Assembly (NCBI GenBank): GCA_947380295.1
Contig: CANCQK010000008.1
Location: 67,479 to 131,478 of the forward strand
Source: Bdellovibrionales bacterium
GTDB lineage: Bacteria; Bdellovibrionota; UBA1018
Reading direction: 5' to 3'
Length of the DNA: 64,000 bases
The notes beneath the pieces were generated by a model that did not search any database, was not told the DNA's origin, and was given only the letters and a program-made list of their open reading frames with translations. Both the position numbers and the translations under genes were made by a program. Of this stretch, positions 1,449-56,117 are shown piece after piece (within the stretch, counting starts at the first letter, position 1; the number at the start of each line of letters is the position of its first letter).

Positions 1449-2948
1449 ATGGATACATCGAAATCAAGTGCCTCGACCCAGTTTAAGGTGGGTATGTTTG
1501 CCCTTCTGGGACTCTTTATGGTTGCGGCAATGACTGTTTTGGTCAGCAACAGGCCGTTTTGGTGGAAGCCCTGTCAGTTAGTTAAAATCACGGTGGACGA
1601 TGCTTCGGGTCTGAAAGCGAAGTCCCCTGTGCGCTCCCTGGGAATTGATATAGGATACCTCAAAACTGTGACCCTTGAAGAAACTCATGTCACTCTTGGA
1701 ATTTGCCTGACTGCCCCAGTGCAAGTGCTGCCTACGACGCGTGCCTACCTCAAGGGAGAGGGATTTTTAGGGGATAAGTTTGTTGAGCTAAGACCTGTGA
1801 AATACCTGCAGGCCACTGAGACGGCCTCTCAGCCGTCGCCCGTGCCGTCAGAACATTCGAGCCTCTTTATGCGCGCTGTCGGGTTGGCAGGCGGTTTAAT
1901 TGAAATTCTTGTTCCTTCTGCCGAAGCGAGCATCGGGAAAGTTTCGCCTCAGTTGGAGACTCCCACACCCCAGTCTCCGGTTCGATCTCGCAGAAATCCG
2001 GCTGCAAAGAGCGGCGAAGAGATTCCTGTAGGTGAAGAGTCTCCTGATGTTCAGCACTTGGTCCATCGTGTGGATGATTTGGTCCAGCAAATTAGCGGTC
2101 TCACCGGAAACCTACGGCAGGCAATTAATCCTGATGACCTGAAAAAAACTATGAAGCAGCTCAATTCGACATTAGAGAGCGCTTCAAGAACGCTGTCGCC
2201 CGAGAGTGGCCTGAATCAGACTGCTCAGCGAACCCTGGCCAAGCTAGAGGATGGGATAGAACAGTTACGGGATTTGATGACTCGAGTGAATAAGGGCGAG
2301 GGTTCTGTGGGTATGTTGCTCAACGACCCTATTTACGCTCAAGAAATTCACACAGCTATTAAGAATCTTAACCTTTTGCTGAATAAAGTGAGTGCCGTTC
2401 GGTTTACGCCGGATCTGGGTGCGGTTTGGTTGTCTGCTTTTAACGGCGCAAGAGGATGGTTCCATCTGGGGATTTGGCCTAAGCCGAATCGGTATTATCT
2501 CTTGGGGATTGGGAGCGACAGCCGCGGACGTGTTTCGAACACGACTACCTCCACGACTGTGGGTGCAGGAAGTCCAGTTCAGGTGACCAGCCAGGTGACT
2601 GATTTTACATCCATGTTTCTTACTGCAATGATGGGTAAAGTTTACCATGATCGTTGGGATCTTTCCTTGGGGCTCCTTTATGGAGACGGTGCAATTTCAT
2701 TGAAATACAACTTTGGTCCGCAAGACTGGGTCGATCAATTCCAGGTCGGCACCGATGCCTATATTCACGTGGGGTTCGGCCTGAATGCGCGTCTCTACGC
2801 CAATGTTCAGCCCTTTAAAAGCGTGTATGTTAAAGCAGGTTTAGAGCAACTCCCTTTTATTACGCAGGGGAGTTCGGTGAGTTATTTTGTGGGTGCTGGT
2901 TTGTCGTTTGACGATGAAGATATCAAACTCTTGTTTGCTCTGAAGTAA
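1449..2948 (+). CDS. MCE/MlaD-family protein with a long C-terminal extension (499 aa).
   Basis: It begins 3 nt after the mlaE stop. An N-terminal TM helix is followed by an MCE domain (KITVDDASGLKAKSPVRSLGIDIGYLKTVTLEE...GEGFLGDKFVELRP). The C-terminal third has alternating hydrophobic, beta-strand-like segments and ends in a ...GAGLSFDDEDIKLLFALK aromatic-rich stretch. Confidence 0.8.
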   Translation: MDTSKSSASTQFKVGMFALLGLFMVAAMTVLVSNRPFWWKPCQLVKITVDDASGLKAKSPVRSLGIDIGYLKTVTLEETHVTLGICLTAPVQVLPTTRAYLKGEGFLGDKFVELRPVKYLQATETASQPSPVPSEHSSLFMRAVGLAGGLIEILVPSAEASIGKVSPQLETPTPQSPVRSRRNPAAKSGEEIPVGEESPDVQHLVHRVDDLVQQISGLTGNLRQAINPDDLKKTMKQLNSTLESASRTLSPESGLNQTAQRTLAKLEDGIEQLRDLMTRVNKGEGSVGMLLNDPIYAQEIHTAIKNLNLLLNKVSAVRFTPDLGAVWLSAFNGARGWFHLGIWPKPNRYYLLGIGSDSRGRVSNTTTSTTVGAGSPVQVTSQVTDFTSMFLTAMMGKVYHDRWDLSLGLLYGDGAISLKYNFGPQDWVDQFQVGTDAYIHVGFGLNARLYANVQPFKSVYVKAGLEQLPFITQGSSVSYFVGAGLSFDDEDIKLLFALK

Positions 2949-2949
2949 A

Positions 2950-4239
2950 ATGGCTAAAAAGGCTCGGACTCGAACCCAGATTACTCAAAAGTTTCGCCGA
3001 AATTCTGCGAGGATCCAGCGCTGTACTTCTCCCAACACGACTTGGCTAGTGACGGTTTCAGGTCATGATGTTCCTGGTATTACTGCTGAAGTGACTGGGA
3101 TTTTGGCACGCCATGATGTTGTGATTTTAGATCTAGCTCAAGCTGTGATTCAAAAACTTTTGTCGCTTTCTTTCTTGTTTCAGACTTCTCCGACTCGACA
3201 CGATGAAGATCAGATCTTTCAGGAAATTTTGGAGAGAGGGTCAGAACTTGGACTCAAGATTGACTTTAAAAAGATTCCTGTTGGTGCCGCGAATGCCAAA
3301 ATTGAAAAATCAGTGCAACACTATGCTGTCACTTTGATTGCGGAGATCGTCACCGCGCAGTCTCTCCATCAAGTAACTCAGGTTCTTGCGCGCCGAAAAC
3401 TGAACATCGACGTAATTAAGAAGTTGAGTGAAGATCATTTCGGGTGTGTTGAAATCCTCGTCTCCAGCACGCAGGGTGTGGACGAAACCAGCTTGAGAAA
3501 AGAGCTTCTCGAGATTGCGAAGAATCAATGCGTGGACATTGCGCTGCAGGCCGAAGGCCTATACAGGCGGGCCAAGCGGTTAGTCGTTTTAGATATGGAC
3601 TCTACCTTAATTCAGGGCGAAGTGATCGACGAACTCGCGCGCGAGCGAGGTGTTTTTGATCAAGTAGCTGCCATCACTTTGCGAGCAATGCAGGGTGAGA
3701 TGGATTTTGATGAGAGCCTGCGACAACGATGTTTATTGCTTAAGGGACTCAAAGCTGAAGATTTGATTCGGGTTTATGAAAAAATCGAAGTCACTCCAGG
3801 CGCTCAGGATTTAATTCGAGTTTTGAAGCGCCTAGGTTACAAGATCGCTTTAATTAGCGGTGGGTTTACTTTTGTGGCAGAGCGCTTGAAAGAGCGCCTC
3901 GGAATCGATTTCGTCTATGCGAACACGCTCGAAGTTAAGAATCAGACTGTGACGGGTTTTGTTCTACCGCCGATTGTAAACGCCCAACGAAAAGCAGATT
4001 TATTAGAGGTGATTGCTCAGCAGGAGAAAATTGTACTCGATCAAGTGATCGCAATTGGTGATGGGGCCAACGATCTTTTGATGCTGGAGAAGGCTGGTCT
4101 TGGAATCGCTTTTAACGCTAAGCCTGTGGTGAGAGATCGAGCCGATCTGGCTTTCAGTCAAAAAAATATGCGATCGATCCTCTACTTGCTTGGGCTTTCT
4201 GCGAGGGATGTGGCCCAGGTAGTTCAAGAGGACGCCTAA
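2950..4239 (+). CDS. serB: Phosphoserine phosphatase SerB with N-terminal ACT regulatory domains.
   Basis: HAD motifs are present: LVVLDMDSTLIQ (motif I DxD), ALISGGFT, and IAIGDGANDLLMLEKAGLGIAF (motif IV). An N-terminal ACT-like segment reads LVTVSGHDVPGITAEVTGILARHDVVILDLAQ. Confidence 0.85.
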   Translation: MAKKARTRTQITQKFRRNSARIQRCTSPNTTWLVTVSGHDVPGITAEVTGILARHDVVILDLAQAVIQKLLSLSFLFQTSPTRHDEDQIFQEILERGSELGLKIDFKKIPVGAANAKIEKSVQHYAVTLIAEIVTAQSLHQVTQVLARRKLNIDVIKKLSEDHFGCVEILVSSTQGVDETSLRKELLEIAKNQCVDIALQAEGLYRRAKRLVVLDMDSTLIQGEVIDELARERGVFDQVAAITLRAMQGEMDFDESLRQRCLLLKGLKAEDLIRVYEKIEVTPGAQDLIRVLKRLGYKIALISGGFTFVAERLKERLGIDFVYANTLEVKNQTVTGFVLPPIVNAQRKADLLEVIAQQEKIVLDQVIAIGDGANDLLMLEKAGLGIAFNAKPVVRDRADLAFSQKNMRSILYLLGLSARDVAQVVQEDA

Positions 4240-5446: not shown

Positions 5447-6646
5447 TTAATTTCCGGACTCTTTCTCTTTTTTGCACGAGGAGTTCGTCGATCCGTCAGT
5501 GTATATTTCCTCCCAAGGAAGCACGCGAACTCCTGATTCATTCCAACCCTCTGTTAGGGGTGCTAAAAGTGTTGTGGAGGAGGTCGGGTTTTTCTTTTGA
5601 AAGGCTTTCAATAATTCAAGGTCTGTTTTTTTTACGGACTCTCGATCGAAAATCTGAAAAGCGCGAGTCTGACCCCCGAGTTCCTCTTCTACCAGGTGAA
5701 TGAGCTTTTTCCCCGTTGATCGGTAGTAAAAATAGCTGTTGCGCTTTGAACCCGAATAGCCATTTTTAGACATTCGCTCAACAGCTAATGAGATGTGAAA
5801 CTGCCTCATTAAATTGGCCCCAAGATGTGTTGCTACTCCCGAGTCGAGAATTAAAAAAATCGGTTTACCTGTTCCTGAAGGATGAGGTTGAAGCGGCATC
5901 AGAACGAAAAGTTCGATAAGTGCTTTAATGTGAGTGGCTACCTTTTTTGGATTAGCGCGGGTGGCGGATGCTAGCGCTGCTCCTGTGGGTTCCTCCAGAG
6001 TTGCGCAGTTTCTTAATATAGCATAGGCAAGCTCGCTGTCTAATTTGAGGCGTTTGAATTGGAAAATGTCTCGCTGGCAAGTCAAGTCGATCCAATCTTG
6101 GAAAAGGTCACTTCTTACTTGAGTGTCTCGCGAAAATGCGATCCCTGGCATCCCTCCGGCTTCAAAATGTTTGAGGAGTTGTGAGCGTGTAGGTTTGCTT
6201 ATTTTTTTATCCAATCCTTGTATTTCTGAAAAATTCATGGGGTACAGGCGAATTCTTCCCATTCGTCCTGTGAGGGATTCACGAATATTTTGAAGGATTG
6301 AAAACTCCGTCGAGCCTAAGAGTAAAAAGGTTCCTGGTCGTCGGTTTTCATCCACCAGCATTTTGATTGTGTCAAAGAGCGCAGGTGCCTTCTGAGCCTC
6401 ATCGACGATAATAGGATGCGCATCTTGATAGGAGGCTAAAAAAGTTTGAGGGCTTTCTTGTGCTAGCTGACGCTTGGCGATGTCATCGAGCGTCATGTAT
6501 TTGGCGTTTTTTTGGAGCTTTGTCAGGATTTCGCGAGCTAAAAAGCTTTTGCCCGTTTGGCGAGCGCCTTGGATAGCAACCACAGGTGTGAATTTCAGGC
6601 GTTTAATCAGAAGGTTTAAGACTTCGCGAGGTCGAGAGTGCGGCAT
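5447..6646 (-). CDS. AAA+ ATPase of the AAA_14 / DUF4143 family.
   Basis: Walker A is VVAIQGARQTGKSFLAREI and Walker B is HPIIVDEAQKAP. It has the domain order typical of the widespread ATPase-plus-DUF4143 proteins found in accessory regions. Confidence 0.75.
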   Translation of the reverse strand: MPHSRPREVLNLLIKRLKFTPVVAIQGARQTGKSFLAREILTKLQKNAKYMTLDDIAKRQLAQESPQTFLASYQDAHPIIVDEAQKAPALFDTIKMLVDENRRPGTFLLLGSTEFSILQNIRESLTGRMGRIRLYPMNFSEIQGLDKKISKPTRSQLLKHFEAGGMPGIAFSRDTQVRSDLFQDWIDLTCQRDIFQFKRLKLDSELAYAILRNCATLEEPTGAALASATRANPKKVATHIKALIELFVLMPLQPHPSGTGKPIFLILDSGVATHLGANLMRQFHISLAVERMSKNGYSGSKRNSYFYYRSTGKKLIHLVEEELGGQTRAFQIFDRESVKKTDLELLKAFQKKNPTSSTTLLAPLTEGWNESGVRVLPWEEIYTDGSTNSSCKKEKESGN

Positions 6647-49371: not shown

Positions 49372-49572
49372 TAATAATCTCCGTGACCACTCCCACCACC
49401 AATTTTTGATGAGGGCTTCTAGGATCTTTCGACCCAGGGACAATGGCCCTTGTCCCAGCGGTTGTTAAGTACTGTGGCTTTCAACTTCATACAAGGCCCG
49501 ATTGAACTTTGTATGCAGAATTTCGCCACTTTTGTTAAAAAAATCTTCTCACTTGTAGTTATAGTGTCTTCG

Positions 49573-52728: not shown

Positions 52729-53454
52729 ATGGAGAACGCTATGAAGAGCTTGAAGGTCTTTGTAGTGGTTGTAGCTCTCCAATTTTTCTTGCGGATTCAG
52801 TTCGCCTCAGCTGCTGAAATCAACACGAACGAAGTCTCATCGTCGAACGCTCCTTCTTGGGTCAAGGTTTCGCGAGTCGATCGAGTGGTATCTCGAGTTC
52901 AGCGCTTCATGGAGTGGGACCTTAGAAAAGTGAAGGTAGTTTGGTACTCCGATCAAAAGGAATTTCAGCATTTTCACCACTATGATTCAAGTGTTCTAGC
53001 AGTCACCCAAAAACCGGAGAACACGATCCATTTAGGGCCGCGCGTCGACAACTCCAATTTTGATGCAGTATTTGGTCACGAGTTGGTGCATGCGATCTTA
53101 TTTCAGAAATATAAAAAATCGATCCCAAACTGGCTCGAAGAAGGACTTGCTAATTATGCGTCCAAGCATGGCACAGTCGACTATAGATGGATTGCAAGTC
53201 AGCCCTTTGTGGACGTGAAAACCCTTGGGCATCCTTTCTTAGATTCGGCTCATTCGACTTTGAGTCCCAGGTATCATTACCAAGTTTCAACGGCTTTGAT
53301 TCAAATGATTGCTTCAAAGTGCAATCTTGAGGAGCTCTTGCAGCTCTCGTTGGGTACTAGTTTAGAGAATTATTTGTCGACCACTTGCGAGTTGGATGAC
53401 ATCAATGCAAGTTTTCAGACTTGGGTGAAAAAAAAGAACAAGGCTAATAGCTAG
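52729..53454 (+). CDS. Secreted putative zinc metalloprotease (HExxH ... E gluzincin-like).
   Basis: Signal peptide [24 protein letters not shown]. The motif [12 protein letters not shown] is followed 20 aa later by EEGLANYA. Start set at ATG 52729, immediately after the MFS stop. Confidence 0.5.
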
Positions 53455-53459
53455 GTGAT

Positions 53460-54032
53460 GTGAATGAAAAAAAGTGGATTGATCTCCACTCTTTTTTCAC
53501 GAAATCGTGTACACCTCTGCCCATTATGAATCTGAGCCAATTTCCTGAGCTTTTAAAGTTTTTTTCTAACACGATTGCCGAATCTGACCCTGATCAGGAT
53601 CGGGAGAGCGCAAAAGCTTTTGCTGCCGCCGGCCCTCCTCAGGTGAGAGAACGAGTCGTGGCGCAATTACAGTCTATTTTAACGAGTAACGACCTCCCAT
53701 TGGATGAGTTTGGATCTGAAGCAAATCGTTGGTTCGGTGACTTGGGCGAGGCTCGTACTTGGTTGGAAGGTCTTCTCTCGGTTCTGAGCTCAGCTGAGAG
53801 TGGCAACTCGGCTTCCATCGCTGTGAAAGATAGTCATGGCACCGTCCTCGCCGAAGGTGATGCGGTTCAGGTGATCAAGGACTTGAAAGTCAAAGGCGGC
53901 TCGAGTGATCTTAAGCGTGGGACGCTGATCAAGAAAATCCATTTAACAGTCTTCGGCAGAATTCCCCCGCCTAGATTCGTTAGAATCAGGAGGGGGATGA
54001 ATGCCTCCCCTGGTTTTCTATGTATTTCTTGA
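53460..54032 (+). CDS. PhnA-domain protein whose 3' end runs into the IS element (probably insertionally disrupted).
   Basis: The C-terminal region [44 protein letters not shown] matches the PhnA/YjdC C-terminal domain up to '...I-x-L'. The reading frame then continues into the IS left end without the expected last ~25 residues. A sequence resembling the missing tail (IEGLG...FRKVN) is found just beyond the IS right end at about 55851. Confidence 0.45.
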
Positions 54033-54414
54033 TGACCTCGATGGTGGCGCCACCTGTAGTGAGGAGGCAGTAGGCCCTTGTCCAGAGTACTGGTTTCCAA
54101 TAGTACTGCCGCAGGTGCTTTCCGAACTTCTTCCGAGTCAGACGACTCGTCACCGTTTTGAGATTATTGATGAAGATGCTCATTTGCATGCTGGGATGAC
54201 ACGATAGGAGTATGTGAATATGATCTTCCTCTCCTCCAAATTCTACGAGAGAGCAATCCCATTTTTGGCAAAGTTCCTCGCTAGTTACTTTGAGGAACGC
54301 CAAAATCTCTGGGGTGAAACATTTTCTTCTATACTTTGTTACTAACACCAAATGATACTGAAGATTATATACGCAATGAAAATGGCTCTTTAGCTTATTT
54401 TTTTTCATTGACAC
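53986..54414 (-). CDS. tnpA: IS200/IS605-family Y1 (HUH) transposase TnpA.
   Basis: 142 aa. [14 protein letters not shown] matches the IS200 signature. The HuH motif is HIHILL and the catalytic Tyr lies in KKYIENQ. Confidence 0.9.
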
Positions 54415-54443
54415 TAACTAGTCCAGGTGACAGGTTGGTGTCA

Positions 54444-55637
54444 ATGTTGCTGAAAGGATATCAGTTCAAATTGAGACCATCTAAGAAACAAAAGAAGATA
54501 CTTTTGCGATGGATGGGGGCGTGTCGCTTTGTCTACAATTGTGGGCTCACGCATCGCTCGATGAACTACCAGCAGTGGCAGAATTCGGTTTCCTATTTTG
54601 ATCAGCAAAATGCTCTTCCGGAGGTGAAAAGTGACCCTGAGTTGAGCTGGCTCAAGGAGGTTCCTTCTCAGAGTTTACAGATGGCACTTAGGCACCTCGA
54701 CACTGCTTTCAAGAATTTCTTTCGGGGTACAGGGCAATACCCTCAGCCGAAGAAAAAGGGAATTCATGATGCCATTTCCTTTCCTCAGGGTAATGTCCTC
54801 AAAATTCGAAAGAAGGCTAGGAAAACAAGTAGTATTCTACTTCCCAAGCTTGGAGAAGTGGAGTTGGTCCAACACCGCAACTTCACTGGTAAAGTAAAGA
54901 GTGCCACAGTTTCCCATTCTCATGGAAACGGCTGGCAGGTCAGTATTTTGGTTGAAGAGGCGGATATGATTCCCACAAATACGTCCCAAGAGACTGTAGG
55001 GATTGACCTAGGTGTTACAAAAACCATCGCCCGCAGTGGAGTTCATCCAGACCAAAACCTTCCAGTTGAGCAAATCAAGCGAATTGAGAAGCGAATTGCA
55101 GTGCTTCAGAGGAGACAGGCAAAGGTCACTCGATTTTCGGATCGATGGAGGCATTTTTGCCGTGTCGTCGCCAAGTTACATTCTAGAGTTTCACGTATTA
55201 GAAAAGATTTTCTTCACAAGACCTCCTGCGAGCTCTCCAAAAACCACGGAGTGATCGTCATGGAAGATCTGAAGGTGAAGAATATGTCCAAGTCCGCCAG
55301 TGGGACCAAAGAGAATCCGGGTCGAAAAGTCGCTCAAAAAAGCGGACTGAATCGGGCCATTCTCAGGCAAGGATGGGGAAGTTTTCGTACCATGATGGAG
55401 TACAAAACCAAATGGTACGGCTCGCACCTGATCCTAGTTGGTCCTAAGAATACGTCCCGGCGCTGTTGCGAATGCGGCTATACGCATGAGGGCAATCGTC
55501 AAACTCAGGCAGATTTTCTGTGCCTACAATGCGGACACAATGAAAATGCGGATAAGAATGCCGCTAACAACATTAGAAGACTTGGATTAGAGTCTTTGGG
55601 GCGTCAGCCCCTAGAAGCCCCCGCCATAGCCTGCTAA
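54444..55637 (+). CDS. tnpB: TnpB (OrfB_IS605) RNA-guided endonuclease with an intact RuvC-like active site.
   Basis: RuvC-I is VGIDLGVTKT, RuvC-II is IVMEDLKVKNM and RuvC-III is NADKNAANNI. The zinc finger is CCECGYTHEGNRQTQADFLCLQCGH. Start trimmed to ATG 54444 (MLLKGYQFKLRP), which gives a 30-bp divergent promoter region with tnpA. Confidence 0.9.
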   Translation: MLLKGYQFKLRPSKKQKKILLRWMGACRFVYNCGLTHRSMNYQQWQNSVSYFDQQNALPEVKSDPELSWLKEVPSQSLQMALRHLDTAFKNFFRGTGQYPQPKKKGIHDAISFPQGNVLKIRKKARKTSSILLPKLGEVELVQHRNFTGKVKSATVSHSHGNGWQVSILVEEADMIPTNTSQETVGIDLGVTKTIARSGVHPDQNLPVEQIKRIEKRIAVLQRRQAKVTRFSDRWRHFCRVVAKLHSRVSRIRKDFLHKTSCELSKNHGVIVMEDLKVKNMSKSASGTKENPGRKVAQKSGLNRAILRQGWGSFRTMMEYKTKWYGSHLILVGPKNTSRRCCECGYTHEGNRQTQADFLCLQCGHNENADKNAANNIRRLGLESLGRQPLEAPAIAC

Positions 55638-55850
55638 GGCTTGGCGGAGGGAGTAATCACTTGGTGATCCAGAGCTTGTCGAGTGCCGGGTGGACGGGAG
55701 CACTCTCGTTCTCAAAACCTGTTTCCTGAAAAAAGCTTAGCTCGAGAGGGACTTTGGATTTCATCCGGGTTGATCTTGAGATTAATAGTTGAGTCAAATG
55801 GTATAGATTTTCCTTGCCTAGAGCGCCCCCTCATGTTAGCTTCCCCCCTC
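55560..55850 (+). ncRNA. Putative TnpB-associated omega RNA (right-end element RNA) scaffold. Extent is approximate.
   Basis: By analogy with characterised TnpB systems, the guide RNA scaffold overlaps the tnpB 3' end and the right end. This region contains several stable hairpins: CCGCCATAGCC...GGCTTGGCGG spanning the tnpB stop, GAGTGC...GCACTC, and CCCTC-ata-GAGGG. Confidence 0.3.
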
Positions 55851-56117
55851 ATAGAGGGATTAGGGACAAAGGGGAAGAGTTTGAGGAGCTCGGTACCTAT
55901 GTTCAGAAAGGTAAATACGAAAGTTGCATTTCTAACCGTTAAGGCTTTTTTCTTGGTGCTCTCCTACCTCATGCCAAGTGCTAGTTTGGCGAGCTGGGAA
56001 GAAATTGAAGACGCTATCGGAGCTGAACTCGTTCTAAAAGACGATCAGCGATTTGCTTTTTTCTCGAAACGTTAATCGGATACATCGATTAAGCGCCTCA
56101 GAGGCTGCCTCCAAGAC

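Follow-up and report, generated by a model that had tools for sequence, protein, structure and literature searches.

A probable IS605-type insertion sequence within a PhnA/YjdM-domain gene of a Bdellovibrionales bacterium: ends, target and predicted omega-RNA core

The 64,000-nucleotide stretch of Bdellovibrionales contig CANCQK010000008.1 analysed here (the window, in whose coordinates all positions are given) very probably carries a complete 1,714-bp insertion sequence (IS) of the IS200/IS605 family at 53947-55660. The element has divergent tnpA and tnpB genes and lies seamlessly 3' of the pentanucleotide TTTAA inside a gene for a PhnA/YjdM-domain protein. A first-pass annotation of this DNA had proposed an intact TnpA-plus-TnpB element interrupting a PhnA-domain gene at ...KKIHL, and this core proposal is upheld by a PhnA domain match that breaks off at profile position 42 of 69 and by two uninterrupted transposon genes. 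The right end of the element, and with it the predicted RNA guide, falls elsewhere than first supposed. As far as sequence can tell, the element shows every testable feature by which IS605-type members of the IS200/IS605 family are defined; intact genes and ends are compatible with activity, of which they are no proof.

The disrupted gene and the boundaries of the element

Recognition of the disrupted gene relies on comparison of the open reading frame (ORF) at 53460..54032 (+) with its homologues. In a Pfam scan, the match of this ORF to PF03831 (PhnA/YjdM domain) ends at profile position 42/69. A search with its first 163 residues returned 463 homologues, most of them 163-170 aa long, and the named sources are mostly metagenome-assembled genomes (MAGs) of Bdellovibrionota, Oligoflexia and Bdellovibrionia. 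More than 100 homologues run 26 residues beyond the point where the PhnA match of the window ORF stops, and the sole 100% match, P0001 (168 aa), corresponds to the truncated ORF. After KKIHL, all eight homologues inspected read [I/V][G/D]D-x-x-x-IECRVDGSTLVLKT[C/I]FL[K/R]K[A/G]. When homologue tails were used as tblastn queries, the displaced tail LGDPELVECRVDGSTLVLKTCFLKKA was recovered at 55660-55737 with 85% identity (E=3e-13), followed by its stop codon at 55738-55740.

Joining the two flanks in silico yields a gene of 501 nt and 166 aa. Its closest orthologue (L161) is just as long, and the two align free of gaps; the reconstructed protein matches PF03831 over all 1-69/69 profile positions (E=6e-26). 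The junction of the joined gene reads ...CAT TTA A/TT GGT GAT... (H-L-I-G-D, the slash marking the join), in which the codon ATT encodes an isoleucine that agrees with 7/8 homologues and with the family consensus HL[I/V]GDP. The joined flanks neither gain nor lose anything relative to the orthologue, and there is no target-site duplication. The insertion point is codon 141 of the 166-codon gene. The truncated gene is now fused to 27 junk codons from the left end of the element, and its last 80 nt have been moved to 55661-55740, such that a complete C-terminal PhnA domain is absent from the present ORF (1-42/69) and present in the excised gene. The orthologue alignment that the first-pass annotation had put forward as a check leaves the disruption standing: the uninterrupted L161 gene equals the joined gene at 501 nt, and homologues lack the C-terminus of the window ORF. 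Judged by these alignments, the present ORF is a member of the PhnA family disrupted by an insertion, and the 168-aa database entry named 'PhnA domain-containing protein' is, on the same grounds, an insertion-truncated pseudogene.

The N-terminal ~95 aa of this Bdellovibrionota PhnA-domain family (window 53526-53820; P0002-P0120) have no Pfam match, in a region where the classical zinc-ribbon of PhnA proteins is normally expected. PF18593 is also present in two of the PhnA-domain homologues.

The ends of the element were located by comparing ten loci with close TnpB relatives (74-91% amino acid identity), gathered by scanning collections of genomes and metagenomes with TnpB. Three are Oligoflexia MAGs (L001, L002, L039) and the others are metagenomes (L081-L087); L002 gives the left end only, its contig stopping within tnpB, and L085-L087 represent one insertion seen in three samples. 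The right end reads GGGAGTA(A/G)TCAC in all nine copies that reach it (8 independent sites), which corresponds to window position 55660. The base that follows ...TCAC is T, G, G, A, T, C, A and A across these right ends, and the flanks beyond are unrelated. At the other side, TTTAA stands directly before the left end at 8/8 independent sites with unrelated upstream flanks, and the first base of the element varies, being C in most copies and A in L085-87. Aligned with L001, the window element matches over its whole length (86% nucleotide identity); similarity among copies breaks off exactly at 53947 and 55660, and the related copies measure 1,708-1,715 bp against 1,714 bp in the window. The shared right end, ...GGGAGTAATCAC in the window (also given as ...GGGAGTARTCAC), and the TTTAA-preceded left end in independent copies thus define the element as 53947-55660 (Table 1).

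Once the right junction is fixed at 55660/55661, only a left junction at 53946/53947 keeps the host gene in frame. Two alternative junction registers, HL-L-GDP (target ATTTA) and HL-T-GDP (target TTAAC), were considered and discarded, as the first IS base and the base after TCAC vary while TTTAA is invariant; the isoleucine junction codon, matching 7/8 close homologues, likewise disfavors them. CAGTC... at one extreme of the element and ...ATCAC at the other do not form an inverted repeat. The first-pass annotation had allowed that additional IS copies might place the boundaries elsewhere, and they did so at one end: the right end moved to 55660, while the left end stays at KKIHL. Both genes are intact in L081, L082 and L083. 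The nearest cluster member of the window TnpB, P0122, sits in a different gene context.

Table 1. Positions and strands of the element, the gene it interrupts, its predicted RNA and junctions, and a gene-less relative; a slash within a sequence marks a junction.
Feature	Position	Strand	Remarks
IS200/IS605 element, 1,714 bp (probable)	53947..55660	+	Left end - tnpA (leftward) - tnpB (rightward) - right end; IS605-type layout
Insertion target / predicted target-adjacent motif TTTAA	53942..53946	+	Directly 5' of left end
PhnA/YjdM gene, 5' part	53526..53946	+	ATG 53526 to ...KKIHL plus first base of next codon; homologues start at equivalent Met
PhnA gene, 3' part	55661..55740	+	(I)GDPELVECRVDGSTLVLKTCFLKKA plus stop codon; tblastn E=3e-13
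Left-end imperfect hairpin TCCCCCGCCTAGATTC GTTA GAATCAGGAGGGGGA	53963..53997	+	16 nt inside left boundary; overlaps last tnpA codons; inverted repeat I7
tnpA, Y1 HUH transposase	53986..54408	-	Likely start ATG 54408 (140 aa); alternative GTG 54414
tnpB, RNA-guided endonuclease, 397 aa	54444..55637	+	PF12323 + PF01385 + PF07282
Right-end / predicted omega-RNA 3' core, 86 nt	55575..55660	+	Stem-loop (SL) 1 55576-55597, SL2 55598-55611, SL3 (right-end hairpin) 55618-55651
Terminal AGTAATCAC of right end	55652..55660	+	After SL3
Predicted omega-RNA guide / TnpB target TTGGTGATCCAGAGCTTGTC	55661..55680	+	First host bases after ...TCAC end
Predicted omega-RNA, 3' part		+	...GGGAGUAAUCAC, ending ...GUAAUCAC, then host flank
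Predicted uninterrupted junction		+	...CATTTAA/TTGGTGAT...; flanks joined in silico
Predicted empty-site sequence		+	...AAAATCCATTTAA/TTGGTGATCCAGAG...; flanks joined in silico
Predicted excised-circle junction		+	...GGGAGTAATCAC/CAGTCTTCGGCAG...; expected from mechanism
Gene-less element, left and right ends only, 152 bp	49383..49534	-	PATE/MITE-like; between Zn-ribbon-like gene and uvrC
Potential TnpB target of gene-less element's guide			TTTAA+GGAGATTATTAATGG; predicted

Transposon genes and the predicted omega-RNA core

The first-pass annotation had described TnpA and TnpB as catalytically intact, and comparison with solved structures supports this at the level of conserved residues. The tnpA product matches PF01797 over 1-121/121 profile positions (E=2.5e-41) and the NF033573 equivalog at 135.9 bits against a cutoff of 55. 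Its closest solved relative is IS608 TnpA (2a6m/2vhg; E ~3e-22), in which H64/H66 of the HUH motif align with DHIHIL, and Y127 and Q131 with KKYIENQ; ISDra2 TnpA (2xm3) aligns at E=1.3e-15.

The tnpB product scores 293.5 bits against NF040570 (cutoff 100). Its listed ORF begins at TTG 54336; the true start is ATG 54444, since ISDra2 TnpB aligns from residue 4 of the resulting 397-aa form, the related copies all begin MLL(K/R)GY, and the public collection holds the 397-aa form. The alignment with ISDra2 TnpB (8bf8/8exa/8h1j) spans the full length (E=5.5e-41). The motifs GIDLG, VMEDL and NADKNAANNI match those around the acidic residues of the ISDra2 RuvC domain, which we take to be D191, E278 and D361, such that the D-E-D triad is conserved, and both CxxC pairs of the zinc finger are kept (CCEC, CLQC). 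None of the marks of TldR-type proteins (loss of RuvC residues or C-terminal truncation, and missing transposon ends) was found. Going by these motifs, this TnpB has all the sequence hallmarks of an active OMEGA nuclease.

An 18-nt inverted repeat at 54406-54446 (CATTGACAC...GTGTCAATG) holds a start codon in each of its arms, that of tnpA (ATG 54408, minus strand) and that of tnpB (ATG 54444, plus strand). The repeat presents TTGACA on each strand, its arms are conserved in related copies, and it may serve as an operator or as some shared structure for regulation. A sigma-70 promoter scan for tnpA, tnpB and the omega-RNA gave nothing convincing (1 match against 2.5 expected), and no convincing -10 box was seen beside the repeat.

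Both ends of the element contain hairpins that share the base CCCCCGCC and are maintained by compensatory changes across copies; in L083 and L002 the left hairpin occupies the same position with another stem sequence. The right-end hairpin extends across the stop codon of tnpB, and 9 nt separate it from the boundary. When eight copies are aligned over their last 240 nt, the consensus fold consists of three consecutive stem-loops followed by AGTA(A/G)TCAC. Standard pairs are formed in 99.5% of 216 cells, and 4/27 pairs carry double changes that compensate each other; in a control with the partner columns slid, both pairing and covariation vanish. Several single changes yield G-U pairs, which on the opposite strand are C-A mismatches. 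The structure therefore belongs to the plus strand, where alone such pairs are tolerated. A plus-strand structure fits both an RNA in the sense of tnpB and the top-strand DNA recognized by TnpA, two uses that covariation alone cannot separate. The tetranucleotides that would act as TnpA 'guides' 5' of the hairpins (GAATT / AGAAG) were compared with the cleavage sites under the rules of IS608; they gave no reliable assignment and none is claimed.

Codon usage in tnpB marks the other edge of the structured region. Codons for conserved residues occur in 2-5 synonymous forms up to 55572, and from 55575 onward (RRLGLESLG) nearly all are fixed to one form, a sharp change that places the 5' edge of a strongly constrained unit at ~55575. 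By this measure of codon fixation, the 86-nt right-end core is under selection at the nucleotide level, and 55575-55660 is likely the 3' core of the omega-RNA scaffold. A covariance model built from the 90-nt right-end core also matches distant TnpB loci (L018, L007, L008, L055, L063, L091), just 3' of tnpB; the distant relatives, with 26-36% identity, include Crocosphaera, a Blastocatellia MAG and clostridia. Their right ends share the architecture of the window core and read AGAAGCCCCC-hairpin-GGGAG-N2-3-TCAC, some with GTCAA; several, clostridial ones included, end in UUCAC. The L018 locus has an extra minus-strand match at 6070-6150, ~2 kb away from tnpB and perhaps a further solo right end.

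Guide, proposed mechanism and a gene-less relative

With the right end at 55660, the predicted guide starts at 55661 (TTGGTGATCC...); its length of ~16-20 nt is an assumption taken from characterised TnpBs. By analogy, TTTAA is the predicted target-adjacent motif (TAM) of this TnpB. Within the window, TTTAA plus guide has a single near-match, that of the occupied site itself, where ATCAC stands in place of the TAM. The first-pass annotation had stated that the sequence next to the right end defines the TnpB guide, and this principle is supported.

The established mechanism of the IS200/IS605 family suggests how such an element would behave. TnpA would excise and insert the top (plus) strand as single-stranded DNA by way of the left-end and right-end hairpins, and precise excision would restore the PhnA-domain gene. 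The omega-RNA would consist of the 3' end of the tnpB transcript and the right end, with the adjacent host sequence TTGGTGATCCAGAGC... as guide. The site rejoined after excision, which presents TTTAA and a match to the guide, would be cut by TnpB and its omega-RNA, and repair of the cut from a sister copy that still bears the element would retain it. The occupied site would be spared because the right end terminates in ATCAC rather than TTTAA, the expected means of self-protection. Transposition of the family through single strands favours an active top strand on the lagging-strand template. GC skew is positive on the plus strand over all 64 kb (+0.055 to +0.116), which makes that strand the presumptive lagging-strand template, and the top strand of the element is the plus strand. 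One report describes TnpB nucleases as promoting their own spread by targeted cleavage and homologous recombination (PMC10705468).

The covariance model found a second full-length match in the window that BLASTN missed, at 49383-49462 (minus strand; 46.9 bits, E ~6e-11). It forms part of a 152-bp gene-less element that lies 3' of TTTAA (49539-49535, minus strand). Read along the minus strand, TTTAA is followed by CAAAAGTGGCGAAATTC and a hairpin, SL1, SL2, TAGAAG, SL3 and GGGAGTGGTCAC, which ends at 49383; the left end, CAAAAGTGGCGAAATTC plus hairpin, aligns with the left ends of the IS copies (GGCAGAATTC plus hairpin). With ends of the family, the same target and no ORF, it has the makeup of a palindrome-associated transposable element (PATE) or miniature inverted-repeat transposable element (MITE). 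A Zn-ribbon-like gene (ATG 49368, minus strand) and uvrC (probable ATG 49573, identity confirmed by Pfam) diverge from one another here, and the 152-bp element fills most of the space between them. Its right end, ...GGGAGTGGTCAC, abuts the GGAG upstream of ATG 49368, and its would-be guide, GGAGATTATTAATGGCACGG, takes in both the start codon and the ribosome-binding site of the Zn-ribbon-like gene. The top strand is here the minus strand, such that its orientation relative to the inferred replication is opposite to that of the full IS.

The gene-less element keeps essentially the same right-end core that is constrained in the full element. Synonymous constraint from 55575 and retention of the core in a 152-bp element both mark out 55575-55660, and on this basis the 86-nt core might be a complete, unusually short omega-RNA scaffold, and the solo element might provide the TnpB of the full element with another guide in trans; we regard this proposal as doubtful, with a small chance of being right. 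The stems of its left-end and right-end hairpins are unlike those of the full element, which makes its mobilisation in trans, or use as a TnpB guide RNA, speculative.

Farther downstream in the window, an ORF at 57449-59947 (minus strand) encodes a protein of 832 aa, Cys-rich in its C-terminal region, that matches the eukaryote-type IBR (in-between-RING) domain PF01485 at 36.9 bits (cutoff 24.3); this could be a bacterial protein akin to RBR-type ubiquitin ligases.

Alternative readings and known systems

The right end is where the present reading departs furthest from the first-pass annotation, which had extended the element to ~55850, with right-end hairpins there, a PhnA tail from ~55851 and an omega-RNA at 55560-55870. 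This arrangement draws on a weak resemblance of IEGLG...MFRKVN to the E. coli PhnA tail and on a small local hairpin at ~55839-55876, and we give it practically no credence. The supposed tail (IEGLGTKGKSLRSSVPMFRKVN) is a chance resemblance, the true one lying at 55660-55737 with E=3e-13. All copies lose similarity at 55660, the end point of 9/9 related copies, which puts the earlier boundary ~190 nt too far right. The region 55741-55905 folds as shuffled sequence does (z=0.12), and MFRKVN opens a separate ORF with GAGGAG upstream. This 58-aa ORF (55899..56075, plus strand; MFRKVNTKVAFLTVKAFFLVLSYLMPSASLA/SWEE...) has a signal-peptide-like N-terminus and no Pfam match; since 'MFRKVN' is its N-terminus, it is not a PhnA tail. 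The guide and omega-RNA coordinates were wrong because the boundary was: the RNA should span ~55575..55680, and 55741-56075 is ordinary host sequence. It is also very improbable that no gene was disrupted, whether because the 190-aa (or 168-aa) ORF is native or because the assembly is chimeric at a repeat. The ORF does figure in a public protein collection as the 168-aa protein P0001, but no homologue shares its C-terminus, and both gene halves flank the element, in frame and at the exact length of the orthologue, which a chimeric join would not give.

A different question is whether the element at 53947-55660 is an immobile relic, or its TnpB a domesticated protein such as a TldR-like nuclease-dead RNA-guided repressor, with no active transposon. 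Such a state would accord with the single full copy seen, with the decay of relatives, and with a solo mini-element that bears a right end beside the ribosome-binding site of a gene. It appears unlikely nonetheless: TnpB is of full length with its RuvC D-E-D and zinc finger intact, an intact tnpA retains the HUH, Tyr and Gln residues, the element has kept its two ends and the TTTAA context, and the host gene is otherwise undamaged. The two halves of that gene remain in frame, which argues that the insertion event is recent.

The favored reading, that of a complete IS seated in the PhnA/YjdM gene, nevertheless has several results set against it. No empty-site allele of the locus was found, the best non-self PhnA-domain match being 63% identical, and BLASTN of the element detected no second full copy in the 64-kb window. 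The exact TnpB is carried by one contig only in the public collection. Relatives show decay: tnpA has lost its N-terminus in L001 (IS at 1100-2813), and tnpA and tnpB are both frameshifted in L085-87 (IS at 2011-3718). The ends and right-end core are still intact in these decaying copies. As for the omega-RNA, helices predicted 5' of 55575 have weak support, with too little covariation to call, and the comparison of the right end with known RNA families that had been recommended did not bear fruit; an Rfam 15 scan of 53000-57000 (E<=1) returned a spurious rli47 match and no omega-RNA family.

For an IS605-type element of the Bdellovibrionota/Oligoflexia that had not been described before, the analysis provides exact ends, a TTTAA target and predicted TAM, a ...TCAC terminus and a predicted native guide. 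The phylum is little studied, and the current understanding of the IS200/IS605 family is unchanged. The 86-nt core offers a concrete candidate for a minimal scaffold in this TnpB clade, on the strength of synonymous suppression, covariation and retention in a mini-element.

Among known systems, ISDra2 of Deinococcus radiodurans resembles the window element in the full-length alignment of TnpB, with its RuvC motifs and zinc finger (~30-35% protein identity, estimated by eye), and in a TnpA of the same Y1 HUH family. In ISDra2, the omega-RNA shares sequence with the 3' end of tnpB and with the right end. In contrast, its target and TAM are TTGAT rather than TTTAA, and its tnpA and tnpB are co-oriented rather than divergent. 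The divergent layout is that of Helicobacter pylori IS605, and the H. pylori elements IS605/IS608 share with the window element the TnpA residues, subterminal hairpins and a fixed short target that is not duplicated. IS608 targets TTAC and has the right end TCAA, where the window element has TTTAA and ...TCAC, and its spacing is slightly different from the 16 nt between left cleavage site and hairpin and the 9 nt between right hairpin and end seen here. The gene-less relative at 49383-49534 is likened to PATEs by its LE-like hairpin end, right-end core, TTTAA target and absence of an ORF; it differs in that a single copy is seen and in its hairpin stems, which are unlike those of the full element and leave mobilisation by this TnpA speculative.

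The closest functional parallel concerns the target. For IS605 TnpB7 of Sulfolobus islandicus REY15A, TTTAA is the site of insertion and was shown by experiment to work as the TAM as well (PMC11043419). Its guide begins directly after a conserved UUCAC of the right-end RNA (reRNA), and the native site flanked by TTCAC is left uncut (PMC11043419). The window element is likened to this system by target, TAM and terminus as described rather than by sequence: both have TTTAA, a ...TCAC terminus, a guide that starts at the next base (predicted here) and a right end that differs from the TAM. They differ in host, archaeal there and bacterial here, and in the exact terminus, which is TTCAC in S. islandicus and ATCAC/GTCAC here. 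The TAM of ISAam1 TnpB, which has been used in genome editing, is likewise 5'-TTTAA (PMC12908284), a likeness to the predicted TAM here that extends to the TAM alone. By analogy with these systems, the element belongs to the already characterised class defined by TTTAA and ...TCAC.

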